Source: an uncultured bacterium (GTDB lineage: Bacteria; Acidobacteriota; JAQAZP01). From it: DNA of 64,000 bases. Under the pieces are notes generated by a model that was given only the letters and a program-made list of their open reading frames with translations, did no database searches and was not told the DNA's origin. Every line of letters begins with the position of its first letter. The stretch's first letter is position 1. Location of the stretch: contig CBESOE010000005.1 of NCBI GenBank assembly GCA_965531145.1, forward strand, positions 4,762 to 68,761, given 5' to 3'. Below are positions 26,771-54,241 of the stretch, in pieces. Position numbers and translations under genes: made by a program.

Positions 26771-28678
26771 ATGCTGATCCAGACCAGGCAGCGGCCCATC
26801 CTCGGTGTTGTCCTGCTCGCGGTGCTGATCTGTGCCGCAACGGCGGGCGAGGCCCTGGCCCAGGAATACCGCGAACCGGAGGGAACCCCCCTGCCCGAAT
26901 ACGCGCGCAAGATCCACATCGACCGCCCAGTGCCATTCATCGTGGAGAAGGGCATGCGGGGTGCGCCCGAGCTGCCCAACGTCATGATCACCGGGTACTG
27001 GCCGCCGACCAACGAGATGCTGCGCCGTTTCAGTCCCGACCCGGTGCAGAACCCCGACGGCTGGATCGGCGGAAACTGGGAGGGGCGAGGGTTCAATGTC
27101 TACGCCTTTTTCCCCGAATTCCCCGAGGGGCTGGGTCAGGGCGAGGGTGACTTCGAAGTGGACTACCAGGACACCTCGGCGGATTTCTGGCCCATAGCCG
27201 AACAGATCAGACCGGTGGCTATCATCACTTTTGGCCGGGCTTCGCCAAACCGGGATTGGGAGGTGGAGTGGCGCGGACGCAACCTGCCCGAGGCTGACTG
27301 GTTTCCCGACTACGCCGACCCGCGCAAACCCACACCATCCCCGCCCGACGACAGTGTCCCCGACAGCCACATCCGCTACTCCACCCTGCCGATGAATGAC
27401 ATCGTCGACGCCATCAACGACTCGGGGCTGAACATCAACGCCTTTGCCGACACCACCGAGGACGCCGGCGCCTTTCTCTGCGAGTTTGTCGGCTACCATG
27501 CTGCCTGGTATCACGACCTCCACGAATCCGCCGGTGACCCGGATCAGGTCCTCTCCGCCGGCCACATCCACGTGGGGAGCAATATCGGGCTCCCCGATGC
27601 CATTGCCGCCGCCGAGATCACCGTGCGCAGCCTGCTCGACAATCTCGCCCCCTTGCTGGCCCCGCAGGCCGGCCTGATCGCCGGCCCGGGGCCCGCGGAG
27701 AACAATCCGCCCACGGTCCGGGTCTTTGATGCGGAATCGTATGCCGCGCACCGCTACGAGTTCGACGCCTACGGCGTGCCCAAGTATGGCGTCAATGTCT
27801 CCGCCGGCGACCTGGACGGTGACGGGCTGGACGAGATTCTCACCGGCGCCGGGCCAGGCGCGGTCTTCGGCCCCCACGTCCGGGGTTTCGAAGCCTGGGG
27901 CACCCCACTGCCCGGGCTCAGCTTCCTCGCCTACGGCACCAACAAGTACGGGGTGAACGTCTGTGCCGGTGACATCGACGGCGACGGTTTTGACGAGATC
28001 ATCACCGGCGCCGGGCCGGGCGCGGTGTTCGGCCCCCACGTCAGGGCCTGGAACTATGACGGGTCGCCTGGAGTGGCCGCGATACCCGGGGTGAGCTACT
28101 TCGCCTACGGCACCCCGAAGTGGGGGGCCAACGTGGCCTGCGGCGACATCGACGGCGACGGGTTCGACGAGATCGTCACCGGCCCCGGTCCGGGCTCGGT
28201 GTACGGCCCCCACGTCAGGGGCTGGAACGTGGACAACGGCCCGGCCGCCGCCATGCCCACGGTGAGCTACTTCGCCTACGGCACGCTGAAGTTCGGGGTC
28301 AATGTCTGCTGCGGTGACGTGGACGGTGACGGTATGGACGAAATCATCACCGGCGCCGGACCGGGGGCGATCTTCGCCTCCCACGTCCGCGGCTGGAACT
28401 ACGACAACGGCTCCATCGCCTCCCTCCCCGGATTCAGCTACTTTGCCTGGCCCGAGAGCAGTTGCCGCTTCGGAGCCAAGGTCTTCTCCGGTGTGGACCT
28501 GGACGGCGACGGCAGCGACGAGCTGGTGGTGGGCGCAGGCCCCGACCCGGCGGTGGAATCCGCGCTCAAACTCTACCGCTACAACGGCTCGGCGGTCACC
28601 GAATCTCTCTCCCTGCAGCCCTTCCCCGCCGGCTGGACCCACGGTTCCACCGTGGCGGCAGGACGGTTTCAGGACTGA
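26771..28678 (+). CDS. secreted pyroglutamyl-peptidase I (C15)-like domain fused to the C-terminal five-loop propeller module
   Basis: 635 aa, AGGAGG RBS. Signal peptide MLIQTRQRPILGVVLLAVLICAATAGEALA. The head aligns by eye to PGP-I: VMITGYWPP, ITFGRASPNRDWEVEWRGRN (Glu), DAGAFLCEFVGYH (Cys) and SAGHIHVG (His). The C-terminal module is encoded at about 27670-28678 and has 5 DxDxDG loops. Confidence 0.85.
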   Translation: MLIQTRQRPILGVVLLAVLICAATAGEALAQEYREPEGTPLPEYARKIHIDRPVPFIVEKGMRGAPELPNVMITGYWPPTNEMLRRFSPDPVQNPDGWIGGNWEGRGFNVYAFFPEFPEGLGQGEGDFEVDYQDTSADFWPIAEQIRPVAIITFGRASPNRDWEVEWRGRNLPEADWFPDYADPRKPTPSPPDDSVPDSHIRYSTLPMNDIVDAINDSGLNINAFADTTEDAGAFLCEFVGYHAAWYHDLHESAGDPDQVLSAGHIHVGSNIGLPDAIAAAEITVRSLLDNLAPLLAPQAGLIAGPGPAENNPPTVRVFDAESYAAHRYEFDAYGVPKYGVNVSAGDLDGDGLDEILTGAGPGAVFGPHVRGFEAWGTPLPGLSFLAYGTNKYGVNVCAGDIDGDGFDEIITGAGPGAVFGPHVRAWNYDGSPGVAAIPGVSYFAYGTPKWGANVACGDIDGDGFDEIVTGPGPGSVYGPHVRGWNVDNGPAAAMPTVSYFAYGTLKFGVNVCCGDVDGDGMDEIITGAGPGAIFASHVRGWNYDNGSIASLPGFSYFAWPESSCRFGAKVFSGVDLDGDGSDELVVGAGPDPAVESALKLYRYNGSAVTESLSLQPFPAGWTHGSTVAAGRFQD

Positions 28679-28699
28679 CATAAATCAGTAATCCCTGCA

Positions 28700-28727
28700 G
28701 CGCCCCTCCTCCCGGGGGGCGCTTTTT
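28700..28727 (+). terminator. rho-independent terminator
   Basis: Stem gcgcccc / ggggcgc, followed by TTTTT. Confidence 0.7.
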
Positions 28728-28890
28728 CATTTTTTATCGAACCCTGCCCCGCTTTCCCCGTTACTAATCACATAGTAGCCGGAACCAGATGATTTTCCGG
28801 CTCCATTCATCTCTGATAACTGGAGGTCTCTCGCCGCATCCGGGGGGTATGCACTTTATTCATGTCCTTATGTGCAAGGAGACGTGCTCG

Positions 28891-30333
28891 ATGAAGCTCT
28901 GCAGCAAATTTCTGGTTCTGCTCGCTGTCCTGCCGCTGGCTTTTGGCGCCGCGGCCCAGGCGGAGACCTTCAACGGTCTGCCGCTGCACGTGGAAAAGCT
29001 GAGCGACAACGCCATCAGACTGTGGATCGGGGACTACATCTCCTCCACCGCGGTCTCGGCCATCAAAACTGACAAGGGGATCGTGGTCATCGACACCACC
29101 CAGTGCCCCACCCTCGACGAGCAGTTCCGCAAGATCATCGCCAGGGAGTTCGGCCGGGACGACTTCAAGATCCTGATCAACACCCACGAACACTTCGATC
29201 ACACCGCGGGCAACGGCGTCTACTCTGATTGCAAAATCGTCGCCCACGAACTCTGCGCCGAGGGTATGCTGGCCAACCAGGGGGACGTGGAGCGGGTCCT
29301 CGGCTGGTATGAGGAGAACCTGCCCAAGACCGAAGCAAAACTCGCGACCCTGGAAAAGGGCACCGACGAATACAAGAAGACCATGGAGGACCTGGTCACC
29401 TCGAAGATGGAGCTGAAGGCGTTCAAGGCCGGGCTGGAGCTGACCATGCCCACCAAAACTTTTGCCGACACCCTGACCATCCCCATGGGCAACATTACCT
29501 TCGAGCTCTACGCCGTGGGCGGCACCCACACCTCCAGTGACATTTTCGTCTTTGTTCCCGAGGAGGGGCTGCTGTTCACCGGCGACATGATGGCCGACAA
29601 ATGGCTCACCGACACCCCGGGTTGTCTGCAGTCCTTCTCCCTGCGCCAGGGGAACAAGCGGGACATGCCCCGGCTGCTCAAAAACTGGAAGAGCCTGCTC
29701 GACCGCAAGGGCGAGATAACGCTCTACGTTCCCGGCCACTGGAACGGCGAGCTGTCCTACGATGGGTTTGCCGCCCGCTACAACTACCTGGAGACGATGT
29801 ACACCGGCATCAACCAGGCGGTGAAAGACGGCAAACCGCTGGAGGCGATGTTCACCGAGTTCAGCCTGCAGTCCCGGTTCCCCGAGCTGGTCGGACAGCC
29901 CGGGTTCACCCTCGCCTTTGTCCACAACGGCAATATCCTCGCCTTCTGGTCCGACGCCACTGGCGCCGAATCTGCCTGCACCGCCATGGGGGATCTGATC
30001 GAGGAGCACGGCGTCGAGACATCCCTGAACAAGATGCGCAAAATGCACGCCCGGGGCGGGAACGACTACTACTTCCTCGAAGCCGAGTTCAACGCCATGG
30101 GCTATCGCTACGCCACACAGGAGAAATATGACGAGGCCATCGCCGTCTTCACACTGAACACCGAGATGTATCCCGACTCCTGGAATGTCTGGGACAGCCT
30201 GGGTGAGGCCCAGCTGAAGAACGGTCAGACCGACCTGGCCCTGGCCAACTACGAAAAGTCGCTGAAGCTCAACCCCGAGAGCGAATCCGGGAAAGCTGCA
30301 GTTAAGAATATCAAGGCTGCCCAAGTGAACTAG
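28891..30333 (+). CDS. secreted MBL-fold metallo-hydrolase with C-terminal TPR repeats
   Basis: ORF 28789..30333, with the start moved to ATG 28891 (AAGGAG RBS). Signal peptide MKLCSKFLVLLAVLPLAFGAAAQA. Metallo-beta-lactamase motif INTHEHFDHTAGN. C-terminal TPR-like YRYATQEKYDEAIAVF...GQTDLALANYEKSLKLNP. Confidence 0.85.
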   Translation: MKLCSKFLVLLAVLPLAFGAAAQAETFNGLPLHVEKLSDNAIRLWIGDYISSTAVSAIKTDKGIVVIDTTQCPTLDEQFRKIIAREFGRDDFKILINTHEHFDHTAGNGVYSDCKIVAHELCAEGMLANQGDVERVLGWYEENLPKTEAKLATLEKGTDEYKKTMEDLVTSKMELKAFKAGLELTMPTKTFADTLTIPMGNITFELYAVGGTHTSSDIFVFVPEEGLLFTGDMMADKWLTDTPGCLQSFSLRQGNKRDMPRLLKNWKSLLDRKGEITLYVPGHWNGELSYDGFAARYNYLETMYTGINQAVKDGKPLEAMFTEFSLQSRFPELVGQPGFTLAFVHNGNILAFWSDATGAESACTAMGDLIEEHGVETSLNKMRKMHARGGNDYYFLEAEFNAMGYRYATQEKYDEAIAVFTLNTEMYPDSWNVWDSLGEAQLKNGQTDLALANYEKSLKLNPESESGKAAVKNIKAAQVN

Positions 30334-30362
30334 TGACTGGTACCACTCCTCCAGTCCTCTCC

Positions 30363-30400
30363 GGCGTCCCGCATGATGGCAGCGGGGCGCCGATTTTTTT
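30363..30400 (+). terminator. rho-independent terminator
   Basis: 10-bp stem ggcgtcccgc / gcggggcgcc (one G-U pair), 9-nt loop, then gaTTTTTTT. Confidence 0.75.
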
Positions 30401-30484
30401 ATCCGCAACCAGCTGAGATTTGACTTGACCGCTTGAGCAGGTATCCTTTGGTTTTTCCGCAGGCCGCCTCTTGAGACCGGACAA

Positions 30485-32752
30485 ATGAAAACGATCCGCT
30501 TCATCATTGCACTGCTGATCCTTGCCGGGCCGGCCCTGGCTGACGAGAAAAAGACCTACACCATCCAGCGAGCAACTTCGGAAATCACGGTGGACGCCCA
30601 CCTCGACGAAGCGGCCTGGTCAACGGCCCTCACCGTTGAACTGAACTACGAAACCTTCCCCGGCGACAACATTCCGGCCCGGGTGCGCACCGAGTGCCTG
30701 CTGACCTACGACGACACCCATCTCTACGCGGCTTTCCGGGCCCATGACCCGGAGCCGGAGAAGATCCGGGCCCACTACTCGGACCGTGATGCACCGTATA
30801 ACGACGACATGGTCGGGCTGATGCTCGACACCTTCAACGACGAGCGGCGGGCCTACGAGTTCTTTGTCACCCCGCTGGGGGTGCAGATGGACCTGGTGGA
30901 GGACGATGTGAGCGGCACCGAGGACGCCTCCTGGGACGCCACCTGGACTTCGGCGGGCCGACTGACGGAGGATGGATACGTGACCGAACTGGCCATTCCC
31001 TTCCACCAGCTCAGCTTTCCCGCCGGTGAGGGAGTGCAGACCTGGGGCATCGACATCCTCCGCGCCTGGCCCCGGGACCAGAGGTTTCTCTTTCGTCTGC
31101 AGCCCCGGCAGATGGACATCGCCTGTCACTACTGCCAGGTCTCGAAACTCACCGGCCTGGAACGGCTGGAGTCGGGACGAAACCTGGCGTTCTACCCCAC
31201 ACTCACCGGTGTTCACACCGAACGCCGGGAGGATTTCCCCGAGGGCGGTTTTGTTACGGAACGGGAGGAGCTGGAGCCGGGCATCACTACCCGCTGGGGC
31301 GCCACCCCCAACTTCACTGTGGTGGGTGCCATCAACCCCGACTTCTCCCAGGTGGAGGCGGACGTGGCCCAGCTGCGGATCAACCGCCAGTTCGCCCTGT
31401 TCTACCCCGAAAAGAGGCCCTTCTTTCTCGAGGATGCCGACTACTTCCAGACCCCCCTGGAGGCGGTCTACACCCGGACCGTGGCCGACCCGCTGTGGGG
31501 CGCCAGGATCACCGGCAAGCAGGGGGCTAATGCCTGGGGGTTCTTCACCGCCCAGGACGAGGTGACCAATCTGCTCTTCCCGGGCAGCGAAAGATCAATA
31601 TTCACTTCGCTGGACCAGTCCTATCTCACCGGTGTCTTCCGCTACCGCCGGGACGTGGGCCGCCACTCAAACATCGGCATGCTGGTTACCTCCCGCCAGG
31701 GGGCCAACGACTATGAAAACTCTGTCTATGGTGCCGACGGCCAGATCAGGCTCAGTGATGCCGACACCATCCGACTGCAACTGCTGGGGTCCACCACCGC
31801 CTATCCGGACAAGGTGGCCGCGGAATACGATCAACCCCGGGGCACGTTCAGCGACCTGGCCGGCCTGGCCATCTACACCCACAGCGTTCGCAACTGGAAC
31901 TGGTGGATGAGATTCCAGAGCCTGGGCCGTGACTTCCGGGCGGACAGCGGCTTCATCCCCCGGGTGGACTATCGCGCCGCGCATGCCGGGGTGCACCGCA
32001 ACTGGTGGGGCACCGACGAGAACTGGTACAGCCGGATCGGTCTGGGAAGCGGCGTGGACATTACCGAAGACCAGGACGGCAACCCGCTGGAGAAAGAGGC
32101 CGAGTTCTGGTTCGAGGTGCACGGCCCGCTGCAGTCCCACCTGGAAACCGGCGGCGGCGTGCGTGAACTGACCTTCAACGGCGAGACGTTCGACCAGGCC
32201 TTTGGCAAACTCTTCGGTGAGTTCTCACCCAACGCCTGGTTCTCCGGGCGACTGCGGCTGGACTTCGGTGACGAGCTGGATTACGCCAACACGCGGAACG
32301 GCGATCTGCTGCGGGTTCTGCCCAGCGTGACCTGCCGGCTGGGGCAACACTTCCACCTCGAGCTGGGGTACACCTACGAGCAGCTGGATGTGGCCGATCA
32401 GCGGCTGCTGGTTCCCGGACGCCTGCAGGAAGGGCGCCTGTACCAAGCCAACCTGACCGAGCTGCGCGGGGTCTGGCAGTTCAACACCAGGAGTTTTGTC
32501 CGGGCCATCATCCAGTATGCCGACATCGATCGCGCACCCGAGCTCTATTACGAACCGGTGGACCAGCGGACCCGCGACCTCTTCGGCCAATTCCTCTACT
32601 CCTACACGCTCACCCCGCAGACCGTCTTCTTCCTCGGCTACTCGGAGAACCAGCACGGTTGGGACGACCCCTTCAGCGGCACGGACAGCATCGGCCTGAC
32701 CCGCAGCGACTGGACCATCTTCGTCAAGATCGGTTACGCTTGGCTGCTGTGA
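30485..32752 (+). CDS. CBM9-like / DUF5916-type secreted (outer-membrane?) protein
   Basis: 755 aa. Signal peptide MKTIRFIIALLILAGPALA. The N-terminal block IDAHLDEAAWS...LLTYDDTHLYAAFRAHDPEP...RDAPYNDDMVGLMLDTFNDERRAYEFFVTPLGVQMD is typical of that family as I remember it. Ends ...FVKIGYAWLL. Confidence 0.8.
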   Translation: MKTIRFIIALLILAGPALADEKKTYTIQRATSEITVDAHLDEAAWSTALTVELNYETFPGDNIPARVRTECLLTYDDTHLYAAFRAHDPEPEKIRAHYSDRDAPYNDDMVGLMLDTFNDERRAYEFFVTPLGVQMDLVEDDVSGTEDASWDATWTSAGRLTEDGYVTELAIPFHQLSFPAGEGVQTWGIDILRAWPRDQRFLFRLQPRQMDIACHYCQVSKLTGLERLESGRNLAFYPTLTGVHTERREDFPEGGFVTEREELEPGITTRWGATPNFTVVGAINPDFSQVEADVAQLRINRQFALFYPEKRPFFLEDADYFQTPLEAVYTRTVADPLWGARITGKQGANAWGFFTAQDEVTNLLFPGSERSIFTSLDQSYLTGVFRYRRDVGRHSNIGMLVTSRQGANDYENSVYGADGQIRLSDADTIRLQLLGSTTAYPDKVAAEYDQPRGTFSDLAGLAIYTHSVRNWNWWMRFQSLGRDFRADSGFIPRVDYRAAHAGVHRNWWGTDENWYSRIGLGSGVDITEDQDGNPLEKEAEFWFEVHGPLQSHLETGGGVRELTFNGETFDQAFGKLFGEFSPNAWFSGRLRLDFGDELDYANTRNGDLLRVLPSVTCRLGQHFHLELGYTYEQLDVADQRLLVPGRLQEGRLYQANLTELRGVWQFNTRSFVRAIIQYADIDRAPELYYEPVDQRTRDLFGQFLYSYTLTPQTVFFLGYSENQHGWDDPFSGTDSIGLTRSDWTIFVKIGYAWLL

Positions 32753-32761
32753 AACTCCTGC

Positions 32762-33084
32762 TCACTCCTCCCCGAAGGCCCCGGCAGCCAGCCGACCACC
32801 CATGCCCACCAGCTCCGGATCGTAGGCGATGAAGCTGATCCGCGGCATACTGGTCACCGCCACTCCGTCGTAGTTGAAGCCCCGCACGTGGCAGGGGAAG
32901 GAAGTGCCCGGCCCGGGCACGGTGAGAATCTCGTCGATGCCGTCATTGTCCAGGTCACCGCAAGCCACCACCACGCCGAGCCCCGAGGTCTCGCCGTAGG
33001 CGAAGAAGTCCACCCCCGGCATCGGTTCCAGCGTACCGCCGTCATAACTCCAGCCGCAGACCCGCGGGCCCATTGCTGGGCCAC
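32762..33084 (-). pseudogene. 3' fragment of a propeller-module gene (last ~1.7 repeats only)
   Basis: The minus strand reads ..GPAMGPRVCGWSYDGGTLEPMPGVDFFAYGETSGLGVVVACGDLDNDGIDEILTVPGPGTSFPCHVRGFNYDGVAVTSMPRISFIAYDPELVGMGGRLAAGAFGEE*. Upstream of about 33,084 the same frame is shadow sequence antisense to the + gene. There is no start with a signal peptide. Confidence 0.65.
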
Positions 33085-34078
33085 AAATGGCGTGCCTGTC
33101 TGCACCGCGACAGCGATGCAGCGAGAACCGCTGGTGGTTAGCGACGGTGCCGGCGGGGTGATCATCGCTTGGGAAGATTATCGCTACGGCTATTCGGACA
33201 TCATGGCCCAGAGGGTGGACGGTTCGGGCAACCCACTGTGGAATGCGGATGGCAATGCCATCAGCACCGCATCGGAGTACCAGTGGCATCACACCATGGC
33301 CAGCGACGGCGACGGCGGTACCGACTTTCCCCTCACCGAGTACAAGGTCTTTGCCCACACCTCCGACCCCTGGGTCTTCTGGGAGTCGGGTGTGCGCAGC
33401 GGCTGCTCGGTGGACAACCTGGCCCCGGGGGCGCCACTGACCCTGCTTGGCCTGCCGGATGAGACTGACGTCCTGCTCACCTGGGAAGCCAGTGGCGAGG
33501 ACGACGAGGACCTGGCCCACTACAACGTCTACCGCGGCAGTACTCCTGGTTTCGTGGCTGACGAGAACACACTGATCGGCACGGTCACCGACATCGAGTT
33601 CACCGACACCACCCCCGGGCACGGCACCTGGTATTACCGGGTGGCCGGCGAAGATGTGCACGGTAACGTGGGTTCGCCTTCCAACGAGACTGCGGTTCCC
33701 CTGTCCACCTCAACCGTGGCCGCGTCACTGACCTGCATGCCGTCCTCGGGTGTTCTGCCCTTTGTCACCGGCTTCACGGTTCAGATGACCAACCAGTATG
33801 ACGGGCTGACCCGCCGCATTGCCGGGCGGATCAACGTCACCCTGGCCAACGGCACGTCCTACGGTAACTGGCGGGCAGGCAGTACCAATATCGCCGCCGG
33901 CAGCACCTATGTCACCGGTTGGAACCAGCCTATCCCGGCACTGGCTCCACTGGTGGGTGACAACCTGTTCCGGCTGGTGGCCGCCGACGTGACCCCGGCC
34001 CCCTGGAACCAGCCCCCCTATCCCCCGGCCGGGGATACGGATTCCGATACGGCTACTCTTACCGACATCGCACCATGA
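33077..34078 (+). CDS. 5'-truncated (or internally initiated) surface-protein gene: W-x-x-NGV-x-VC repeat, FN3-like domain, C-terminal DVTPAP domain
   Basis: Recognisable sequence starts abruptly at WATNGVPVCTATAMQREPLVVSDGAGGVIIAWEDYRYGYSDIMAQRV. It continues LTWEASGEDDEDLAHYNVYRGS...GTWYYRVAGEDVHGNVG (FN3-like) and ends in a DVTPAP domain. There is no signal peptide. The ORF is open back to 32888 only as antisense of the propeller fragment. The first in-frame ATG inside real sequence is 33116. Confidence 0.6.
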   Translation, partial: WATNGVPVCTATAMQREPLVVSDGAGGVIIAWEDYRYGYSDIMAQRVDGSGNPLWNADGNAISTASEYQWHHTMASDGDGGTDFPLTEYKVFAHTSDPWVFWESGVRSGCSVDNLAPGAPLTLLGLPDETDVLLTWEASGEDDEDLAHYNVYRGSTPGFVADENTLIGTVTDIEFTDTTPGHGTWYYRVAGEDVHGNVGSPSNETAVPLSTSTVAASLTCMPSSGVLPFVTGFTVQMTNQYDGLTRRIAGRINVTLANGTSYGNWRAGSTNIAAGSTYVTGWNQPIPALAPLVGDNLFRLVAADVTPAPWNQPPYPPAGDTDSDTATLTDIAP

Positions 34079-34085
34079 GGTCGTT

Positions 34086-35774: not shown

Positions 35775-36106
35775 GGTTTCCTCTCCCGGGATGAGTGGTT
35801 TTCGTTGGTCAAGGGTATTGGAAGGTGCAACTCCAATCAAGCGGCCAGGGATCAATCGGTTACTGGATCAGCCCGGGAGATTTCGAAAACGTAATAGTTC
35901 TGAGCCCGACATTTTGTGAGAGAAAACCGGAATCGCCAACATCATGTTTATTTTTAGCGACTTGCAACGGCAACCACTGATTGTCAGCAAGGCATATATG
36001 TTGCAATAAATTATTCACTTGACGAAAACGTAATTAAAGCCACACAGTATCAGTATGCATTTGAATCGATGCTGCTACGCCAGCCATTGAAAACAGGAGA
36101 AGTACC

Positions 36107-37258
36107 ATGAACCTGAATCATACCTGGAACGGGATATCCGCGAAGTTCGGCGCTGTTCTCGCGCTGCTCTTTCTTTCAATCTCTTTGTGCAGTCTGGTCC
36201 CGGCCGGGGCGGATGATTTCGGCTACATCGGATCAGATGGAACTCCCTACATCGTCACCGGTCCGGGCACTGGGTCGAACAACGATCCGCTGGTCCGGGT
36301 TTTCGACCCGCTGGCCACCGATGAACCGCTGTCCGAGTGGATAGCCTACGGGGTTCCCCGGTATGGCGCCAACGTGGCGGTGGGCCAGCTGGACGGGGAC
36401 ATGGAACCGGAAGTGATCACCGGGCCGGGGCCCGGATCGCAGTTCGGACCCCACGTGCGTGGTTTTGAGATCGACGGCACGGCGATCGGTGATATCTCAT
36501 TCTTCGCCTATGGCACCGACAAGTGGGGCGTCAACGTGGCCCTTGGTGATCTGGACAATGACGGCATCGATGAAATCGTCACCGGCGCGGGGCCGGGGCC
36601 GATCTACGGCCCCCACGTCCGCGGCTGGAGCTATGACGGCACCGGCGAACCGACGTCCATTACCCAAGTCAACTTCCTGGCCTACGGCTCCTGGAAGTGG
36701 GGGGTCAACGTGGCCTGCGGTGACATCGATGGTGACGGCTTTGACGAAATCGTCACCGGCGGCGGTCCCGGACCGGTCTTCGGCCCCCATGTCCGCGGCT
36801 GGAACTACGACGGCCTGGCCGACACCACCCCCATCGATCAGATCAACTTCATGGCCTACGACTCACGGAAACGGGGGGTCAACGTGGCCTGCGGTGACAT
36901 CGACGGTGACGGCGTGGCGGAGATCATCACCGCTCCGGGTCCCGGTCCGCAATACAGTTCGCACATCAGGGGGTGGCACTGGAACGGTGTCGACCCGGTG
37001 GAGCAGATCGCCGGGGTGGACTTCATCGCCTACAACGGCCGCTACCGCAAGATGGGCGCCAACGTTGGCTGCGCCGACGTGGACGGAGACGGGATCGACG
37101 AGATCCTCACCGGCCCGGGTCCCAAACCGCAATACGATGCCTGGGTAAAGGTGTTCTCCTATGACGGCACAGGTGTGCAGGAGACCATCGACTTCATCGC
37201 CTACGACCCCGATGATTTCAACTACGGGGTGAAGGTCAGCGGGACCAGGGCGCGATAG
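36107..37258 (+). CDS. secreted stand-alone five-loop propeller module protein
   Basis: 383 aa. Signal peptide, then about 20 residues, then the module: IVTGPGTGSNNDPLVRVFDP..., 5 DxDxDG-type loops, ending FIAYDPDDFNYGVKVSGTRAR. Confidence 0.88.
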   Translation: MNLNHTWNGISAKFGAVLALLFLSISLCSLVPAGADDFGYIGSDGTPYIVTGPGTGSNNDPLVRVFDPLATDEPLSEWIAYGVPRYGANVAVGQLDGDMEPEVITGPGPGSQFGPHVRGFEIDGTAIGDISFFAYGTDKWGVNVALGDLDNDGIDEIVTGAGPGPIYGPHVRGWSYDGTGEPTSITQVNFLAYGSWKWGVNVACGDIDGDGFDEIVTGGGPGPVFGPHVRGWNYDGLADTTPIDQINFMAYDSRKRGVNVACGDIDGDGVAEIITAPGPGPQYSSHIRGWHWNGVDPVEQIAGVDFIAYNGRYRKMGANVGCADVDGDGIDEILTGPGPKPQYDAWVKVFSYDGTGVQETIDFIAYDPDDFNYGVKVSGTRAR

Positions 37259-45214: not shown

Positions 45215-45216
45215 GG

Positions 45217-45245
45217 TTGACAGTGGTCGGTGGGGCACCTATATT
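45217..45245 (+). promoter_or_regulatory. sigma-70 promoter TTGACA-N17-TATATT
   Basis: -35 TTGACA at 45217-45222, a 17-nt spacer, then -10 TATATT at 45240-45245. 69 nt upstream of ATG 45314. Confidence 0.6.
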
Positions 45246-45313
45246 GTTTTACAGATAGCCATAATTGTGTCAGATGTGCGCCTTGCCGCTTAACGTTGAA
45301 GGAGAAGTTTGCC

Positions 45314-46435: not shown

Positions 46436-46457
46436 GGAACGGCCACGCAAACAGACC

Positions 46458-46490
46458 ATGCCCGGCGCCCGGCGCGTCGGGCATTTTTAT
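46458..46490 (+). terminator. rho-independent terminator
   Basis: Stem atgcccg(gcgc) ... (gcgc)gtcgggcat, followed by TTTTT. Confidence 0.75.
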
Positions 46491-46526
46491 TTGCGCTACA
46501 ATTGCTCAGACACCTGTGCCGGCAAG

Positions 46527-49500
46527 ATGAATCGCGGAAGGAACCAGCCATTGACCAGCCATGTCACTTCACCGGACCGGCACCCCGCGGCGATTGCCGC
46601 CCTGGTCACCCTGGCCCTGCTCCTCTACGCCGCTGGTCCGGTTCCCGCCGGAAACCTCTTCGATGCCGCCGCCGCCTTTGGCGCCGGGTACCGGCCGGTC
46701 TACCTGCTGGACGGCGACCTGAACCTCGACGGTGTCACCGACATCGTGGTGAACAACTACTACGGCAACAGTGTCTGCGTGCTCCCGGGCCGCGGAGACG
46801 GTATGTTCGAACCGGCGATCTTCACCGGGGTGGGCGGCAACTGTTTCGGCAGCGCCATCGGCGACCTGGACGAGGACGGCATTCCCGACATGGTGGCCAA
46901 CCACGACGACTACTGGGGGATCACCGTCCTGCTGGGGAACGGGGACGGTTCATTTACCAGGGGCGAGGTCTACGAACCCCAGGGAGTCAACCCGGCCAAC
47001 ATGGTCATCGGCGACCTCGACGGGGACGGGCATCTCGACCTGGCGGTGGCCAATATCTTCAGCGACGACATCTCGCTCTACCGCGGGCCAGGTGACGGCA
47101 CCCTGGAGTTCCAGGGCAATGTGGCCGTTGGTGACTTTCCCATCGGGATCCTGCTCGCCGACATCGACGGTGACGACGTCCCCGACCTGCTCACGGCAAA
47201 CATGCACGACAACACGGTTTCGGTGCTGCGGGGCATTGGGGACGGTTCCTTTGCCCCGCAGGTGGTGTATGACGCCGGCGTCTACCCTTACTCACTGGCT
47301 CTGGGCGACCTGAATGGAGACGGCCTTCCGGACCTGGCGGCAGGCCACGACCAGGGTGACACCGTGACCCTGCTGGACGGCAACGGCGACGGCACCTTTG
47401 ACAACCCCCGTGAGGTTCCCGCCGGGGCCTACCCCAATGATGTGGCGCTGGGAGACCTGGACGGGGACGGAGTTCTGGACCTGGCCACCACCAGCCGGTC
47501 CGACACTTCGGGGACCGGACGGGGAGTCACCGTTCTCCTCGGCGCGGGAGACGGATCGTTCTCCTCCCCATTGCCCCCGGCCACCGCCGGCCAGGCGGAA
47601 TTTGTCCGGCTGGCCGACCTGGACGGTGACGGCCTGCTGGATGCCTTTGTGCTCAACGACCTGCAGCGCCGGGTGTGTGTCCTCATCGGACGGGGGGACG
47701 GGACCTTCCGCAGTGCCACGGACCACCTTGCCGGTGCCGAACCACTGGACACCGCACTGGGAGATCTCGACGGTGACGGGTGGATCGACCTCGCGGTTGC
47801 CGATCGTGCGGCCGGGGAGGTGAGCATCCTTTCCGGCAGGGGTGACGGGAGTTTCGATCTGCCGGCGGCGGTGACGGCCGGCCCTGCCCCCGACCTGGTG
47901 CGACTGGCCGATCTCGACCGGGACGGTGACCTCGACCTGCTGCTGCGCACCGGCGCCGTCCCGGGTCTGACCACCCTGGCCAACGACGGGGACGGCGGCT
48001 TTGGTGAACGGGTCGATCATGATTTCGGCTTCCACCCCGCCACCGTAACCGTGGGAGACCTGGACCGTGACGGGTATCCCGATCTCGTGCTTGCCGATGA
48101 GGGGTCAGCCACCGTGGCCGTGGCACTGAACGACCGGGAGGGTTCCTTTGCCGAACCCCGGGTCTACCCTGGCTCAGGCGAACCGTCAGCCTGCGTTCTG
48201 GCCGACCTGGACGTTGACGGTGATCCGGACATCGCCCTGGATGACCGGGCTGGCATGGTTCATATCCTGTTCAATGACGGTGGCGGCAGCTACATCCCGG
48301 GTACGGCGGCCACGGCGCCCCTGGCCCGGGGACTGGCCGCGGGAAACCTGGACGGCGATCCCTGGCCCGACCTGGCGGTGGGCCGCAACCAGTCCGACGT
48401 GATCAACATCCTGCTCAACAACGGGGACGGCACCTTCCGCACCGCGGGCGAGCTGGAGGCCGCCGGCGCCATGACCGGCATCCAGGCCCGCGACCTGGAC
48501 GGCGACGGTTTCACCGACCTGCTGGCCGCCTCAGCCGGCTCCGAAGAGTTGACGGTCCTGAGGGGGAGGGGGGATGGAACCTTTGACGAAGCCGTGCACA
48601 TCCCGCTGAACGACGCTCCGTCCGGGATGAGCGTGGGTGACCTGAACGGGGACCATGCCCCGGACACGGTGCTGGCCATGGCCGGTGACGGCACGGTGAC
48701 GGTTTTGTTGAACCGCACGCCGCTCACCGCCCTGATCGCCGCCGGTCCCGGCCCGGGCGCCGCCAACCCGCCGCTGATCCGTCTCTTCAGCCCGGGCGAT
48801 CCGCAGCCCCTGGTGGAGATCACCCCGTACGCCGCCATGGGCTTCGGGGCCACGGCGGCCCTCGGTGACTTCGACACCGACGGAGTGCCGGAACTGGTCA
48901 CCGGACCGGGACCGGGTCCACAGTACGGGGCCCATGTCCGCGGGTTTCGTCTGGACGGCACCCCCATCCCGGGAATCTCCTTCCTGGCCTACGGAACCCG
49001 CAAGTGGGGCGTCAACGTGGCCTGCGGCGACATCGACGGTGACGGCCGATGCGAAATCCTCACCGGCGCCGGGCCGGGAGCGGTCTTCGGCCCCCACGTG
49101 CGCGGCTGGAACTGGGACGGCTCGGGCACGGCCGCCGCCATGCCCGGCGTTTCGTTCTTCGCCTACGGGACACCGAAATGGGGGGTTAACGTGGCCTGCG
49201 GCGACCTGGATGGTGATACCTTCGACGAAATCCTCACCGGTGCCGGACCCGGTTCTGTGTATGGACCGCACGTCCGCGGGTGGAACGTGGACGGCGCCGG
49301 GCCGGCCATCCCCATGGCGAACCTCTCCTTCATGGCCTACGGGACCCACAAGTGGGGGGTCAATGTGGCCTGCGGCGACATCGACGGTGATGGTATCGAC
49401 GAAATGGTCAGCGGGGCGGGCCCTGGAGCGGTCTTTGCTTCGCACGTCCGCGGCTGGAACTATGACGGTACCGCCGGGGTGAGCGCCATCAGCGGTGTGA

Positions 49501-49733
49501 ATTTCCTGGCCTATGCCGGGCTGGCCTGGGGGGTCAATGTGGCCTGTGCGGACCTCGATAACGACGGCACCGCGGAAATCCTCACCGGCCCCGGGCCGGG
49601 TACGGATAACCCCCCGCTGGTGGCGGGCTGGAAATACGACGGTAAGACGGTGACCGGAGCCGGCGCCGCCATGTTCCTGGCCTTTGATCCGGCCCTGTTT
49701 TCCCACGGTGTCCGGGTCAGTGGCTCGCAATGA
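46527..49733 (+). CDS. secreted FG-GAP/VCBS repeat protein with C-terminal five-loop propeller module
   Basis: ORF 46458..49733, with the start moved to ATG 46527. Signal/anchor ...AAIAALVTLALLLYAAGPVPA. About 700 aa of classical FG-GAP/VCBS repeats follow (GDLNLDGVTDIVVNN, GDLDGDGHLDLAVAN, ADIDGDDVPDLLTAN ...). The C-terminal module is then encoded at about 48732-49733. Confidence 0.88.
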   Translation: MNRGRNQPLTSHVTSPDRHPAAIAALVTLALLLYAAGPVPAGNLFDAAAAFGAGYRPVYLLDGDLNLDGVTDIVVNNYYGNSVCVLPGRGDGMFEPAIFTGVGGNCFGSAIGDLDEDGIPDMVANHDDYWGITVLLGNGDGSFTRGEVYEPQGVNPANMVIGDLDGDGHLDLAVANIFSDDISLYRGPGDGTLEFQGNVAVGDFPIGILLADIDGDDVPDLLTANMHDNTVSVLRGIGDGSFAPQVVYDAGVYPYSLALGDLNGDGLPDLAAGHDQGDTVTLLDGNGDGTFDNPREVPAGAYPNDVALGDLDGDGVLDLATTSRSDTSGTGRGVTVLLGAGDGSFSSPLPPATAGQAEFVRLADLDGDGLLDAFVLNDLQRRVCVLIGRGDGTFRSATDHLAGAEPLDTALGDLDGDGWIDLAVADRAAGEVSILSGRGDGSFDLPAAVTAGPAPDLVRLADLDRDGDLDLLLRTGAVPGLTTLANDGDGGFGERVDHDFGFHPATVTVGDLDRDGYPDLVLADEGSATVAVALNDREGSFAEPRVYPGSGEPSACVLADLDVDGDPDIALDDRAGMVHILFNDGGGSYIPGTAATAPLARGLAAGNLDGDPWPDLAVGRNQSDVINILLNNGDGTFRTAGELEAAGAMTGIQARDLDGDGFTDLLAASAGSEELTVLRGRGDGTFDEAVHIPLNDAPSGMSVGDLNGDHAPDTVLAMAGDGTVTVLLNRTPLTALIAAGPGPGAANPPLIRLFSPGDPQPLVEITPYAAMGFGATAALGDFDTDGVPELVTGPGPGPQYGAHVRGFRLDGTPIPGISFLAYGTRKWGVNVACGDIDGDGRCEILTGAGPGAVFGPHVRGWNWDGSGTAAAMPGVSFFAYGTPKWGVNVACGDLDGDTFDEILTGAGPGSVYGPHVRGWNVDGAGPAIPMANLSFMAYGTHKWGVNVACGDIDGDGIDEMVSGAGPGAVFASHVRGWNYDGTAGVSAISGVNFLAYAGLAWGVNVACADLDNDGTAEILTGPGPGTDNPPLVAGWKYDGKTVTGAGAAMFLAFDPALFSHGVRVSGSQ

Positions 49734-49751
49734 CAGGTAAGGAACAACAGT

Positions 49752-50852
49752 GTGATTAAGGGAACACCAAAACTGATCACCCCGCGCCGGGCGCCGCACT
49801 TCCGCCGGCGTCTGCTCGGCTGGTATGACCGGCACCGCCGGGACTACCCCTGGCGAGAATCATCGGACACCTATGCCGTCTGGGTCTCTGAGGTGATGCT
49901 GCAGCAGACCCAGACCGGCCGGGTCATCGACTACTACCAGCCCTTTCTCCAACGCTTCCCCGATGTGCAGGCCCTGGCGGCCGCCGACCTGGAGGAGGTG
50001 CTCAAGGCCTGGGAGATGCTCGGTTACTATGCCCGGGCCAGAAACCTCCATGCGGCCGCGGGTCTGGTGGTGCGCGACCACGGCGGCCGGGTGCCGGAGG
50101 AGTACGAATCGTTCCGTGCCCTGCCCGGAGTGGGCGACTACACCGCCGCGGCGGTGACCAGCATCGCCGGCGGCCAGCCACGGGCGGTGGTGGACGGCAA
50201 CGTCAAGCGGGTCCTGTCCCGGCTCTTCCTCCTGGAATCACCGGTGAACAGTCCCTCATCCATGCCTCTGTTCCAGGAGCGGGCCGATGCCCTGCTGCAC
50301 CGCGGCCGCCCCGGCGATTTCAACCAGGCGCTGATGGAGTTCGGCGCCCGGATCTGCCGCCCGCGCACTCCCCGCTGCGATGACTGCCCGGTGGTCAACT
50401 ACTGCGGTGCCTTCCAGACTGGCCGCCAGACGGAGCTACCGCTGCGTCTGAAGACCGGCCGTAAGCCGTTGCGCCGGGTGGCGGTGGGTATCGTCAAACG
50501 GCGGGGCCGGATCCTGATCACCAGGCGGGCGCCGTCAGGGCTGCTGGGCGGGTTGTGGGAGTTTCCCGGGGGCGGCCTGCTGGATGGTGAAGCAGCAGAA
50601 GAGGCCTGCCGGCGTGAGATCAGGGAGGAGACCGGTCTGGAGGTGGCGGTGGAGGAGAAACTGGCCCGGGTGCGTCACGCCTACTCTCATTTCCGCATCG
50701 AGATGGACGTCTTCCGCTGCCGCTGCCTTTCCGGCCGGGTGAGGCTTCGCGGCCCGGTGGACCACCGCTGGATAGAGCCCGGCGAGATCGACCGTTATCC
50801 GCTGCCCGCGGCCAACCACCGCTTCCTGCACCTGCTGGAGGGGGACAACTGA
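49752..50852 (+). CDS. mutY: A/G-specific adenine DNA glycosylase
   Basis: 366 aa, GTG start. Blocks: LLGWYDRHRRDYPWR, YAVWVSEVMLQQTQ, the HhH-GPD region, a C-x6-C-x2-C-x5-C cluster (CRPRTPRCDDCPVVNYC) and a NUDIX-like C-terminal domain (GLWEFPGG). Confidence 0.93.
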   Translation: MIKGTPKLITPRRAPHFRRRLLGWYDRHRRDYPWRESSDTYAVWVSEVMLQQTQTGRVIDYYQPFLQRFPDVQALAAADLEEVLKAWEMLGYYARARNLHAAAGLVVRDHGGRVPEEYESFRALPGVGDYTAAAVTSIAGGQPRAVVDGNVKRVLSRLFLLESPVNSPSSMPLFQERADALLHRGRPGDFNQALMEFGARICRPRTPRCDDCPVVNYCGAFQTGRQTELPLRLKTGRKPLRRVAVGIVKRRGRILITRRAPSGLLGGLWEFPGGGLLDGEAAEEACRREIREETGLEVAVEEKLARVRHAYSHFRIEMDVFRCRCLSGRVRLRGPVDHRWIEPGEIDRYPLPAANHRFLHLLEGDN

Positions 50853-50980
50853 CCATCGACGGTTAGTTCTTGCACTGCGGCCGCTCCACCATAATAATGA
50901 GTTACCCTAGCCAGGGTAGGAGTAGTTTCGGGTTGCCTGTTTCCGCCGTGTGCCGCGGCAGAGGGATTACTGTGAACAAG

Positions 50981-53900
50981 ATGAACCGCCTGGCCGCTCT
51001 GGTGAGCCTCACCGCCGCCTGTGCCCTGATCTGTCTCTGGAGCCTGCACACAGTGCAGACGGACCGGGAACCGCCGAGGACGCCAAATCCCTGGTTCCAT
51101 GCCGAGCGGGCCTTCCCGCTGGGGCACATCCCACTCGAGCAGTGGCGAGCTGCACAGGAACAGGCCCGGCTGCTCAAGTCACAGACCCCGGCCCGCGGCG
51201 GCAACTGGGTCCCCCGGGGCCCGACCAACGTGGGCGGCCGGGTGACCGACGTGGCCGTGGATCCCACCGACGCCAACATCGTCTATGCCGGCGCCGCCGA
51301 GGGCGGTGTCCTGCGGACCACCGACGGCGGCCAGCACTGGACCCCGCTCTTTGACCAGCAGCCGAGCCTGGCCATCGGCGCACTGGCCATCGACCCCACG
51401 GACCGGGAAACCATCTACGCCGGCACCGGTGAGGTGAACCCGGGTGGCGGCAGCATGGCCTACGGCGGGGCGGGCCTCTTCCGTTCAACCGACATGGGGG
51501 ACAGCTGGACTCACCTGGGCCTGGGGAACAGCGGTTCCATCGGCCGGATCCGCATCGATCCCACCGACAACCAGCGCATCTTCGTCGCGGTGATGGGACA
51601 CCTCTGGGAGGGTTCAGCCGATCGCGGCGTTTACCGCAGCACCGACGGCGGCACCAGCTGGGAGAAGGTCCTCTACGTGGGGACGGAGACCGGCTGTGTC
51701 GACCTGGTGATGCGGCCGGACAACCCGGACGTGCTCTTCGCCGCCATGTGGGAGAGGATCCGCCAGCCCGAGTTCTACCGTTACGGTGGTGACACCTGCG
51801 GTGTCTACCGCACCACCGACGGCGGTGACAACTGGTCGCTGGTGGGCGGCGGGCTGCCGGCATCCACCACCGACAGCGGGCGGATCGGCCTCAGTATCTG
51901 TCACGACCAGCCCGATTTCATGCACGCCGTCTATGCCGACAAGACCGGCTACTTCGTCGGGCTTTACGCCTCGGGCAACGGCGGGGCCTCCTGGACCCGG
52001 ACCAACGACAGCGGCCTTTCCGGAGTCTTCTCCTCCTACGGCTGGTGGTTCGGCAACGTGCGCACCCACCCCCGCGACCCGGACACCGTCTTTGTCCTCG
52101 GCCTCGATTTCTACCGCAGCACCAACGGCGGCGCATCCTGGGGCTGGGCCGGCGGTTCCATGCACGTGGACCACCACGGTCTCGACTTCGGGCCCGGCAG
52201 TGACCCGGTGATCTACGAAGGGAACGATGGCGGGGTCTACCGCTCCACCAACGGCGGCACCGGCTGGGCCAAACTGCCTGACCTGCCCATCACCCAGATC
52301 TACCGGGCAGCCCTCGACGCCGGCAACCCCGACGCGCTGTATCACGGCGCCCAGGACAACGGCACCTCCCGCACCCTCAGCGGGGGGCTGGACGACTGGC
52401 AGTTTATTTACGGTGGGGACGGGTTCCAGCCGCTGGTTCACCCTCTCGACTCCAACCGCATCTGGGCCCAGTACCAGTATGGCGAGTTGGGCTATTCGGG
52501 CAATGGCGGTTCCTCCTTCTCCGGAGCCACCAGCGGCATCAGCAGCGGCGACCGACGCAACTGGAACTCGCCGCTGGTCCAGGATCCCACCGATCCCGAC
52601 CGCCGCTACTTCGGCACCAACAAGGTCTACCGCAGCACCGGCAACACCAGCTGGACCGCGGTGAGCCCGGACCTCACCGGCGGGCCGCACTCCGGCAACC
52701 CGGGACAGGTCAACGGCACTCTGACCACCCTGGCGGTGTCACCGCTGGACGGCCAGGTGATCTGGGCCGGCAGCGACGACGGCCACGTGGCGGTGACCGC
52801 CGACGGCGGCGGCAACTGGACCGACGTCTCGGCCAGCCTGCCCGTTCGCTGGATCACCGCGGTGCGGCCGTCCCCCCGGGACCGGGAGACGGCCCTGGTC
52901 ACCATCTCCGGCTACCGCTGGAGCGAACCCCTGCCCCACATCTTCCGTACCACCGACCTGGGCCAGACCTGGACGCCAGTGGCCGGCAACCTGCCCGAAG
53001 CGCCGGTCAACGACCTGGTACTCGACCCGCACGCTCCCGGCCGCTGGTATGCCGCCACCGATGTGGGGATTTTTGAGACCCTGAACAGTGGCGAAAGCTG
53101 GCACGCCCTGGGCAGTGGCCTGCCCGAGGTGGTGGTCCACGCCCTGGTCTTCCAACCGGAGACACGAACGCTGGTGGCCGGGACCTTCGGCCGCAGCATG
53201 TTTTCCATGGTGGTGGGCGACGGCACGGCTCAGCCACGGATCGTCACCGGCCCCGGTCCCGGCAGTGCCAACCCGCCGCTGGTCCGCACCTTCGATCCCC
53301 AGGCAACGGACACCCACCTGGCGGAGTGGACCGCCTACGGTGTGGACGCCTTTGGCGTGAACGCCGCCTGCGGCGACTTTGACGGTGACGGGCTGGACGA
53401 GATCGTCACCGGACCGGGCCCCGGCACCATGTTCGGCCCGCACCTCCGCGCCTTCGACGGCTGGGGCTCCCCGCTGCCCGGAGTGAACCTCCAGGCTTAC
53501 GGCACGCTGAAATACGGGTTGAACGTGGCCTGCGGGGACATCGACGGTGACGGCATGGACGAGATCCTCACCGGCGCCGGTCCGGGGGCCGTGTTCGGGC
53601 CCCACGTGCGCGGGTGGAACGTGGACGGCGCCACGGCGGCCGCCATGCCGGGGGTCAACTACCTGGCCTACGGCACCAACAAATTCGGGGTCAACGTGGC
53701 CTGCGGCGACATTGACGGCGACGGGGCCGACGAAATCGTCACCGGCGCCGGGCCGGGCGCGGTGTTCGGACCCCACGTGCGGGGCTGGGACCATGACGGC
53801 GGGACCACCGTCCCGATCCCCGGGGTGAGTTACTTTGCCTACGGTACGCTCAAGTTCGGGGTCAACGTGGCCTGCGGCGACATCGACGGCGACGGCTTCG

Positions 53901-54241
53901 ACGAGATCGTCACCGGCGCCGGGCCCGGGGCGATCTTCGGCGCCCACCTGCGGGCCTGGAACTACGATGGTTCCGCCATCACCCCGGTGGCGGCGGTGAA
54001 CCTCTTCGCCTATCCCCCGGCTGAATTCCGTTACGGTGTCCGGATCGCGACCCTCGACCTGGACGATGACGGAGTCGCCGAAATCCTCACCGTCCCCGGC
54101 CCCGACCCGGACCGGCCCGCCCTGGTGCGCGCCTGGCGGGTGGGCGGCGGCAGCACCACGCTGGTGGACACGGTGGACTTTGACGCCTACTCCGAGTTGC
54201 AGCTGACCAGCGGGGGCACCGTGGCCGGCGGCCGGTTCTGA
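50981..54241 (+). CDS. secreted BNR/Asp-box (sortilin-like) head fused to the C-terminal five-loop propeller module
   Basis: ORF 50870..54241, with the start moved to ATG 50981. Signal peptide MNRLAALVSLTAACALICLWS. At least 10 Asp-boxes are present, including TTDGGQHWTPL, STDMGDSWTHL, STDGGTSWEKV, TTDGGDNWSLV, STNGGASWGWA, TADGGGNWTDV and TTDLGQTWTPV. The module is encoded at about 53237-54241. Confidence 0.88.
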   Translation: MNRLAALVSLTAACALICLWSLHTVQTDREPPRTPNPWFHAERAFPLGHIPLEQWRAAQEQARLLKSQTPARGGNWVPRGPTNVGGRVTDVAVDPTDANIVYAGAAEGGVLRTTDGGQHWTPLFDQQPSLAIGALAIDPTDRETIYAGTGEVNPGGGSMAYGGAGLFRSTDMGDSWTHLGLGNSGSIGRIRIDPTDNQRIFVAVMGHLWEGSADRGVYRSTDGGTSWEKVLYVGTETGCVDLVMRPDNPDVLFAAMWERIRQPEFYRYGGDTCGVYRTTDGGDNWSLVGGGLPASTTDSGRIGLSICHDQPDFMHAVYADKTGYFVGLYASGNGGASWTRTNDSGLSGVFSSYGWWFGNVRTHPRDPDTVFVLGLDFYRSTNGGASWGWAGGSMHVDHHGLDFGPGSDPVIYEGNDGGVYRSTNGGTGWAKLPDLPITQIYRAALDAGNPDALYHGAQDNGTSRTLSGGLDDWQFIYGGDGFQPLVHPLDSNRIWAQYQYGELGYSGNGGSSFSGATSGISSGDRRNWNSPLVQDPTDPDRRYFGTNKVYRSTGNTSWTAVSPDLTGGPHSGNPGQVNGTLTTLAVSPLDGQVIWAGSDDGHVAVTADGGGNWTDVSASLPVRWITAVRPSPRDRETALVTISGYRWSEPLPHIFRTTDLGQTWTPVAGNLPEAPVNDLVLDPHAPGRWYAATDVGIFETLNSGESWHALGSGLPEVVVHALVFQPETRTLVAGTFGRSMFSMVVGDGTAQPRIVTGPGPGSANPPLVRTFDPQATDTHLAEWTAYGVDAFGVNAACGDFDGDGLDEIVTGPGPGTMFGPHLRAFDGWGSPLPGVNLQAYGTLKYGLNVACGDIDGDGMDEILTGAGPGAVFGPHVRGWNVDGATAAAMPGVNYLAYGTNKFGVNVACGDIDGDGADEIVTGAGPGAVFGPHVRGWDHDGGTTVPIPGVSYFAYGTLKFGVNVACGDIDGDGFDEIVTGAGPGAIFGAHLRAWNYDGSAITPVAAVNLFAYPPAEFRYGVRIATLDLDDDGVAEILTVPGPDPDRPALVRAWRVGGGSTTLVDTVDFDAYSELQLTSGGTVAGGRF

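Follow-up and report, generated by a model that had tools for sequence, protein, structure and literature searches.

What is the domain that closes four otherwise dissimilar proteins of an uncultured acidobacterium, and what might it do there? The question is raised by a stretch of 64,000 nucleotides (nt) from a member of the Acidobacteriota (lineage JAQAZP01; GenBank assembly GCA_965531145.1, contig CBESOE010000005.1, positions 4,762 to 68,761), hereafter called the window. An earlier note, made from the letters alone, described in it a propeller-like module of about 335 amino acids (aa) at the C-terminus of unrelated proteins and suggested that the module might be a shared anchoring, targeting or display device. 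Here, we describe this module, its predicted fold, its relatives and its genomic setting, and we weigh the roles that it may have. The module is of a known type, the FG-GAP propeller; the fixed cassette itself has no family name and is annotated as ‘hypothetical’ or ‘FG-GAP repeat’. An anchoring or display role is plausible, and on our best reading the module would be a calcium-stabilised, multivalent, lectin-like and non-catalytic tether to a polymer.

The module and its carrier proteins

Copies of the module were sought by translating open reading frames (ORFs) and by a tblastn search of the 64-kb window with the module of one carrier (protein D, below). The four complete modules and the single 3′ fragment of the earlier note were recovered in this way. 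All complete copies lie on the plus strand (tblastn E-values of 1e-98 to 1e-123), and the partial copy lies on the minus strand at about 32774-33082 (E-values down to 7e-25), where it reaches a stop codon. The carriers of the complete copies are as follows.

26771..28678, plus strand: protein A, 635 aa; signal-like hydrophobic N-terminus, weakly C15-like (pyroglutamyl-peptidase-like) head, module at 27674-28675
36107..37258, plus strand: protein B, 383 aa; ‘headless’, with a signal-like segment directly before the module at 36251-37255
46458..49733, plus strand: protein C, 1091 aa as listed; FG-GAP_3 head of about 700 aa, module at 48735-49730
50870..54241, plus strand: protein D, 1123 aa as listed; Sortilin-Vps10/BNR-like head, module at 53237-54238

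The four ORFs translate without interruption and have the high third-position guanine-plus-cytosine (G+C) content expected of real genes (G+C of the window, 62%). The complete modules are 333-336 aa long and colinear, with insertions or deletions of only one to three residues and pairwise identities of 50.2-59.7% over 328-333 aligned positions. Their nucleotide sequences are 70-77% identical, and the longest exact word common to any of them is 33 nt; the copies are therefore old paralogues. This same divergence within one window rules out recent duplication or gene conversion, as well as an assembly artefact, as their source.

In each complete copy the stop codon of the ORF is also the end of the module, so that the extreme C-terminal position described previously holds for every carrier. 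Two finer points of that description need amendment. The opening motif GPGPGxxN(P/D)PL(V/I)RxF had been ascribed to every copy, but copy A deviates from it and opens with GPGPAENNPPTVRVF. Five DxDxDG loops had been counted in each copy; five loop positions are indeed present in each, and 18 of the 20 loops are canonical, the two departures being loop 1 of B (QLDGDM) and loop 3 of C (DLDGDT).

Signal-like hydrophobic segments are found at the N-termini of all four proteins. For protein C the likely start is the ATG at 46527, upstream of the hydrophobic segment, and for protein D it is the ATG at 50981. A signal-peptide heuristic was passed by 147 of 208 homologues but also by 25 of 35 window proteins, and this unspecific measure was not relied on. 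No flexible linker separates head from module in any of the four proteins. Their C-termini (…HGSTVAAGRFQD, …YGVKVSGTRAR, …HGVRVSGSQ and …GGTVAGGRF) contain no hydrophobic helix.

The heads differ in how firmly they can be named. The FG-GAP-type head of protein C is matched by FG-GAP_3 in 15 stretches, and the BNR/sortilin head of protein D exceeds the Pfam cut-off for Sortilin-Vps10/BNR, with a further, sub-threshold match to the F510_1955 glycosylhydrolase family. The C15 label of head A is suggested by sub-threshold matches only: to Pfam PF01470 (E-value 3.3e-4; 21.2 bits, below the cut-off of 22.7), to an NCBIfam model (E-value 1e-5, far under its cut-off) and to pyrrolidone-carboxylate peptidases in the Protein Data Bank (PDB; E-value 0.002). 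A paralogue of head D is encoded at 16454-19204 on the minus strand (32.6% identity over 786 aa). Its C-terminus is formed by a different stretch of about 110 aa instead of the propeller, so that one genome encodes this head both with the module and without it.

Orthologues of two carriers were found. Protein B has three (P0005, P0010 and P0017; 96%, 81% and 74% identity), one of which, P0010, lies in a syntenic locus (L002). Protein C has one, 77.6% identical, in another syntenic locus (L006) of the Acidobacteriota metagenome-assembled genome (MAG) MFD03804.bin.1.167. Between orthologues, module and head are constrained to no really different degree (80% versus 78% identity).

Predicted fold and nearest relatives

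An alignment of the four window modules was given to AlphaFold2, which returned a model with 24 beta-strands (predicted local distance difference test score [pLDDT] 86; predicted template modelling score [pTM] 0.90). When the strands are assigned to blades by the register of the repeat, the model suggests six four-stranded blades. The anatomy of one blade, from the strand map and the repeat register, would be the following.

Strand A: GVNVACG
Calcium loop: D-I-D-G-D-G-x-D-E, between predicted strands A and B
Strand B: EIVTG
B-C loop: AGPGAVFGP
Strand C: HVRGW
C-D hairpin: variable
Strand D: VSFFAY
D-A loop: GTxKWG

The module starts with strands B, C and D of a blade (IVTGPGPGxxNPPLVRVF…EWxAY) and ends with a single strand A (GVxVxxG), a few residues after which the protein stops. 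Blade 6 would accordingly be split, being built from the first three strands of the module and its very last one, a velcro-type closure of the ring that the register predicts. Five complete blades and one split blade give exactly five calcium loops, and blades 1-5 would each carry a loop of the form DxDxDGxxE between strands A and B. The repeat unit measures 57-58 aa and includes the conserved segment GAGPGxxFGPHVRGW. Even when different proteins are compared, blades 1-4 resemble one another at 50-80% identity; for blade 5 the identity between paralogues is no more than about 38%, and blade 1 is 54 aa long. Such position-specific features argue that the six-blade unit has been inherited whole.

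Conservation was mapped on 182 full modules. In blades 1-4, strands A-C, the calcium loops and the B-C and D-A loops are conserved at 80% or more, and the C-D hairpins and blades 5-6 are variable. Propellers are usually built so that one face carries the A-B and C-D connections and the opposite face the B-C and D-A connections. On that topology the calcium loops would share a face with the variable hairpins, and the opposite face would be formed by the invariant loops GAGPGxxFGPH and YGTxK(W/F/Y)G, repeated four to five times around the ring and near-identical in blades 1-4. These invariant B-C and D-A loops carry His, Arg, Trp, Lys and Tyr/Phe.

By sequence, the four proteins are well above the Pfam cut-offs for FG-GAP (PF01839; 50.9-145 bits, cut-off 22.1) and FG-GAP_3 (PF13517; 32.7-327 bits, cut-off 26.9). 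Neither Pfam-A nor NCBIfam contains a family for the whole module, and only repeat-level matches were obtained; for the close family, the named whole-module family that would have contradicted the earlier note was thus not found there. Matches to Beta-prop_CGLA and TcdB_toxin_midN are short, local and confined to the calcium loop, and these names were rejected. A literature search on FG-GAP in Acidobacteria/Acidobacteriota and on six-bladed FG-GAP lectins found nothing specific. In profile searches of the PDB, the only chains matched were those of integrin alpha and of a further protein with FG-GAP repeats, ITFG2 (E-values of 1e-5 or higher).

By structure, the top PDB match in Foldseek is the C-terminal propeller of Streptomyces coelicolor UmbA4 with bound S. 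griseus teichuronic acid (9oee_A; E-value 2e-7, query-normalised template modelling score [TMq] 0.66). Integrin alpha propellers follow (TMq about 0.5), and weaker matches are the six-bladed phytase 3amr, a sialidase and the rhamnogalacturonan lyase YesW (E-values of about 1e-4 for these three), as well as TcB. UmbA4 ends in a six-bladed beta-propeller lectin that binds a cell-surface glycopolymer in pockets on or between its blades, with calcium-type loops conserved (PMC13274773). The UmbA lectins (families 6BP-1 to 6BP-4) resemble the module in having six blades with calcium-type loops conserved across them, in standing at the C-terminus behind an unrelated head and in being secreted. They differ in that UmbA has a trypsin-like head and the partners UmbB and UmbC, whereas the heads in the window are C15-like, absent, FG-GAP_3 or Sortilin/BNR; moreover, one module type is here reused on at least 52 head families. 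No Umb-like neighbour genes were found in the window; one homologue of the module (P0051) bears a Trypsin_2 (PF13365) annotation.

Integrin alpha and the bacterial integrin-type propellers (PMC3192720) share with the module the FG-GAP repeats, the calcium hairpins of the form DxDxDGxxD/E and a ring closure that uses strands of both domain ends. These propellers, however, have seven blades and are N-terminal or internal, whereas the module has six and is C-terminal, and its unit of 57-58 aa has the GAGPGxxFGPHVRGW segment in addition.

Homologues, a second C-terminal domain and the surrounding DNA

A profile search of 1.84 billion cluster representatives matched 16,269 of them at E-values up to 1e-3, 7,827 at up to 1e-10 and 1,775 at up to 1e-30; in metagenomes the cassette is abundant. 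Position and heads were then surveyed in 255 retrieved homologues, which are the best-scoring matches only. The module is 320-349 aa long in 241 of these, and in 248 the protein ends within 10 residues of the module. The score takes no account of where in a protein the module lies, and the C-terminal placement in this set is therefore genuine. Clustering of the 193 heads with 120 aa or more gave 52 clusters, mostly of hydrolases, and the representatives of all 52 match FG-GAP_3 (51 of them also FG-GAP). Domains found in the heads include peptidases (M14, C1, M28, C11 and S8), right-handed beta-helix/NosD, BNR, Sortilin, PNGase F-like, glucose/sorbosone dehydrogenase, 5′-nucleotidase, metallophosphoesterase and F5/8 type C domains, among others. 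The fixed, complete C-terminal module on unrelated heads that had been proposed from the window thus extends well beyond it, and the arbitrary positions and copy numbers of an ordinary repeat array were not seen in the close family.

Two module ORFs of MAG MFD03804.bin.1.167 (L029 and L034) have tails that resemble out-of-frame translation of the module; these apparent exceptions to C-terminal position are probably due to frameshift errors in the assembly, or the ORFs are pseudogenes. Fewer than 70 residues precede the module in 44 of the 255 homologues. Together with the orthologues of the headless protein B, one of them in synteny, these headless forms indicate that the module is autonomous.

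Placement changes among more distant relatives (24-44% identity), which come from MAGs labelled Patescibacteria, Gammaproteobacteria, Pseudobdellovibrionaceae, Planctomycetia and Myxococcota. Some of these retain a head and a C-terminal propeller (subtilase-propeller in a Falkowbacteria MAG and DUF4360-propeller in a Pseudobdellovibrionaceae MAG). Five others, 33-37% identical, do not end with it.

L046, L048, L050 and L058: signal peptide, propeller of the same size, then an L,D-transpeptidase (YkuD) domain; three Patescibacteria MAGs and one labelled Gammaproteobacteria
L051: Peptidase_C39_2 in place of YkuD, downstream of the propeller; unclassified bacterial MAG

It is thus the close family, and not the fold as such, that favours C-terminal placement. 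Closure of the ring by the last strand had been considered as a cause that would force this placement, and it is weakened by the patescibacterial chains, which continue into YkuD. Well-known L,D-transpeptidases usually have cell-wall-binding domains at the position that the propeller occupies here, and the pairing with a cell-wall enzyme hints at an envelope polymer as ligand.

Genes for the module are numerous in related genomes, with at least 28 in MAG MFD03804.bin.1.167 and at least 18 in the Acidobacteriota bacterium MAG_302_bin-08. They are dispersed among housekeeping genes (cytochromes, MutY, nitronate monooxygenase and LemA) and form no operon with any machinery. The first of these MAGs contains the locus (L006) syntenic with the window at 42.5-50.8 kb, where a DUF362 protein (88.5% identity) and MutY (84.8%) accompany the orthologue of protein C; the second contains a 75.6% identical orthologue (L009) of the 1042-aa protein of the window. 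These matches place the window in the same uncultured lineage. No sortase-, exosortase- or PorU-like protein is present among the window ORFs scanned, in agreement with the earlier note, and within 4 kb of 41 related loci neither a sorting enzyme nor a recurrent partner gene was found. The only neighbours to recur there are a sulfatase-like family, a small family that is DUF86/HepT-toxin-like by eye, and proteins with a second reusable C-terminal domain, which we call CTD2.

CTD2 has about 120 aa and a motif that includes …DVTPAPxNQPPYxPSGDTxSD..TVTG. Its copies in the window, 32-46% identical to the reference copy, are the following.

7688-8047, minus strand: CTD2
8573-8944, minus strand: CTD2, internal copy
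13419-13781, plus strand: CTD2
33710-34075, plus strand: CTD2

Neither Pfam nor NCBIfam matches CTD2. AlphaFold2 predicts a seven-strand beta-sandwich (pLDDT 79.5), for which Foldseek returns generic Ig-like matches only. It ends at the last residue in all 13 proteins compared (three in the window and ten in related loci) and never occurs in one protein with the propeller. In the 1042-aa window protein, a weak, sub-threshold choice-of-anchor J match lies directly upstream of CTD2. The gene at 11784-13784 on the plus strand encodes a NosD/PMP-type beta-helix protein with CTD2, the head of which is 31-34% identical to beta-helix heads that bear the propeller (L002 2651-5176, L001 7796-10528 and L032). 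Related beta-helix heads with either CTD2 or the propeller suggest that C-terminal modules are swapped within a head family.

The minus-strand fragment of the propeller module stands beside such a CTD2 gene, at a site that differs from L002.

32765..33084, minus strand: 3′ module fragment of about 105 codons, with the end of one blade, one full blade (DLDNDG loop), the closing strand and the stop codon

The fragment has no head and no credible start and is therefore probably a pseudogene remnant. It adjoins, head-to-head, a 5′-truncated remnant of a plus-strand CTD2 gene. When window 32753-34078 is compared with L002 2434-7918, only window 33313-34078 aligns, with the L002 gene at 6578-7918; the 560 bp at 32753-33312 stand in place of 4.7 kb of L002 that hold a Pel9A-like-plus-module gene, a 377-aa gene and the 5′ part of a 446-aa CTD2 gene. 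The fragment was considered as an inverted orthologue of the Pel9A-like module and rejected as such, its nucleotide identity of just 67-72% being the generic level between modules; the site has undergone a rearrangement and not a simple inversion. The module genes of the window and L002 also differ where protein C is encoded, which suggests turnover of module genes.

Elsewhere in the window, the region 20718-26321 holds a small class III cytochrome c gene followed by two divergent large fusion genes. In each fusion, multihaem cytochrome c regions (c3/c7, paired CXXCH) are joined to a membrane domain of the cytochrome b561 type; the two fusions share 28-35% identity.

20718-21182: small class III cytochrome c
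21251-24166, plus strand: cytochrome fusion, 971 aa
24318-26321, minus strand: cytochrome fusion, 667 aa

Searches of the window for tRNAs and for Rfam families gave no match.

Proposed role of the module

In the mechanism that we favour, the carriers would be exported by N-terminal signal peptides, as their hydrophobic N-termini suggest, and the C-terminal region would fold into the ring described above. The predicted face opposite the calcium loops, with near-identical loops repeated around it, points to a multivalent surface at which a repeating ligand, most likely a glycopolymer of the envelope or matrix, would find several equivalent pockets. Through binding, dozens of exoenzymes (peptidases, beta-helix enzymes, BNR proteins and nucleotidases) would be tethered to the polymer, probably at the producer cell or close to it, and the headless protein B would be a free lectin or cross-linker. 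We regard a binding or tethering module as having about an even chance of being correct, and we rate the narrower proposal that the ligand is the cell's own surface below this.

Several points weigh against a lectin-like tether. Gly and Pro account for many of the conserved residues and may have been kept for structural reasons alone. The UmbA4 match is moderate (18% identity, root-mean-square deviation 5.4 Å), a search of PDB sequences with the module profile misses the UmbA4 chain even at E-values up to 10, and the pocket residues of UmbA4 differ between blades, whereas blades 1-4 of the module are nearly identical. The linker-free junction of head and module is unusual for carbohydrate-binding modules (CBMs), and strict C-terminal placement in about 250 proteins, dozens of them per genome, is also the signature of a sorting domain.

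This last point leads to a reading that we consider rather unlikely, namely that the module is a sorting, secretion or covalent-anchoring tag read by a translocon or attachment enzyme of the lineage, with CTD2 as an alternative tag. Such a tag would be expected to stand at the very C-terminus, as the module does in 248 of 255 homologues, to be borne by dozens of cargo proteins per genome whose heads are unrelated, and to be joined to them without a linker; a beta-helix head family that bears either the propeller or CTD2 but never both would also fit. Two interchangeable C-terminal appendages on the same head families are indeed what a system of ‘address tags’ would look like, and in this joint form, which we hold equally doubtful, the propeller and CTD2 would each route dozens of exoenzymes to a location or an attachment chemistry of its own within an undescribed display or secretion system with its machinery encoded elsewhere in the genome. 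The C-terminal domains of type IX secretion substrates in Bacteroidota (types A and B) offer a close parallel, as they too end dozens of unrelated secreted enzymes per genome without operon linkage to their machinery; these, however, are Ig-like beta-sandwiches of about 70-100 aa cleaved by PorU, whereas the module is a propeller of 334 aa—several times the size of known sorting domains—from a fold family known for ligand binding. Headless copies, moreover, are conserved and would be tags without cargo, and distant relatives have the propeller N-terminal to YkuD or C39. A candidate enzyme is lacking in the window and in the 4-kb flanks of the 41 loci, and neither Por_Secre_tail (PF18962/TIGR04183) nor any other sorting-signal model in Pfam or NCBIfam was matched. 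Other known signals are also unlike the module: substrates of type I secretion with RTX repeats have GGxGxDxUx nonapeptides, a C-terminal signal that stays uncleaved and no N-terminal signal, as opposed to FG-GAP units of 57-58 aa and signal-like N-termini, and PEP-CTERM and LPXTG signals consist of a short motif, a hydrophobic helix and a basic tail, the helix being absent here. Taken together, the headless orthologues, the upstream placement in relatives and a lectin as the nearest structure favour a binding module over a sorting signal.

If the module binds, the polymer might be foreign to the producer, and CBM-like targeting to microbial wall debris or necromass, or to plant or algal polysaccharide, is to us the least improbable of the alternatives, though still an improbable one. 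CBMs, S-layer homology (SLH) domains and dockerins likewise place one reusable module on many catalytic heads and have the role proposed here, the localisation of an enzyme on a polymer or surface; their fold and size are different, and the module is joined without a flexible linker. Degradative heads (M14, C1, M28, C11, S8, PNGase F-like, BNR, beta-helix and nucleotidase) would suit a foreign target, as would the binding of a wall polymer of other bacteria by the UmbA4 lectin and the joining of the propeller to the cell-wall-acting YkuD in distant relatives. The substrates of the heads, however, are chemically unrelated (proteins, glycans and nucleotides), so that one specific CBM on all of them would be odd, and the predicted binding face is uniform among the paralogues of a genome, whereas targeting modules usually diversify. 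That uniformity would also suit a protein docking domain of the cohesin-dockerin or scaffold type, gathering enzymes on a common surface receptor or scaffold, for which integrin-type propellers, as protein-binding platforms, and the dockerin-like chemistry of the calcium loops provide precedent. We consider such docking distinctly improbable, as there is no candidate scaffold or receptor gene nearby and four near-identical blades point to a repeating ligand, not to a single protein epitope. Least of all do we expect an ordinary FG-GAP array, or a catalytic propeller of lyase or phytase type, that is merely common. Pfam does recognise only FG-GAP repeats, and Foldseek does return phytase 3amr, YesW and a sialidase; yet about 250 homologues keep to a fixed length, blade number and position, the blades are position-specific (blade 1 of 54 aa, divergent blade 5 and split blade 6), and the matches to catalytic propellers are weak (TMq 0.36-0.56), with catalytic domains already provided by the heads.

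If the module is a lectin-like tether, this lineage would organise a large share of its extracellular degradative enzymes around one lectin-like cassette. Enzymes and products would thereby be retained near the cell, a point of interest for the use of polymers as food by uncultured Acidobacteriota of soils and sediments. A dedicated model of the whole module would improve the annotation of thousands of proteins (7,827 representatives are matched at E-values up to 1e-10), and the compact and highly symmetric module would be a convenient subject for the study of multivalent binding and of propeller evolution.

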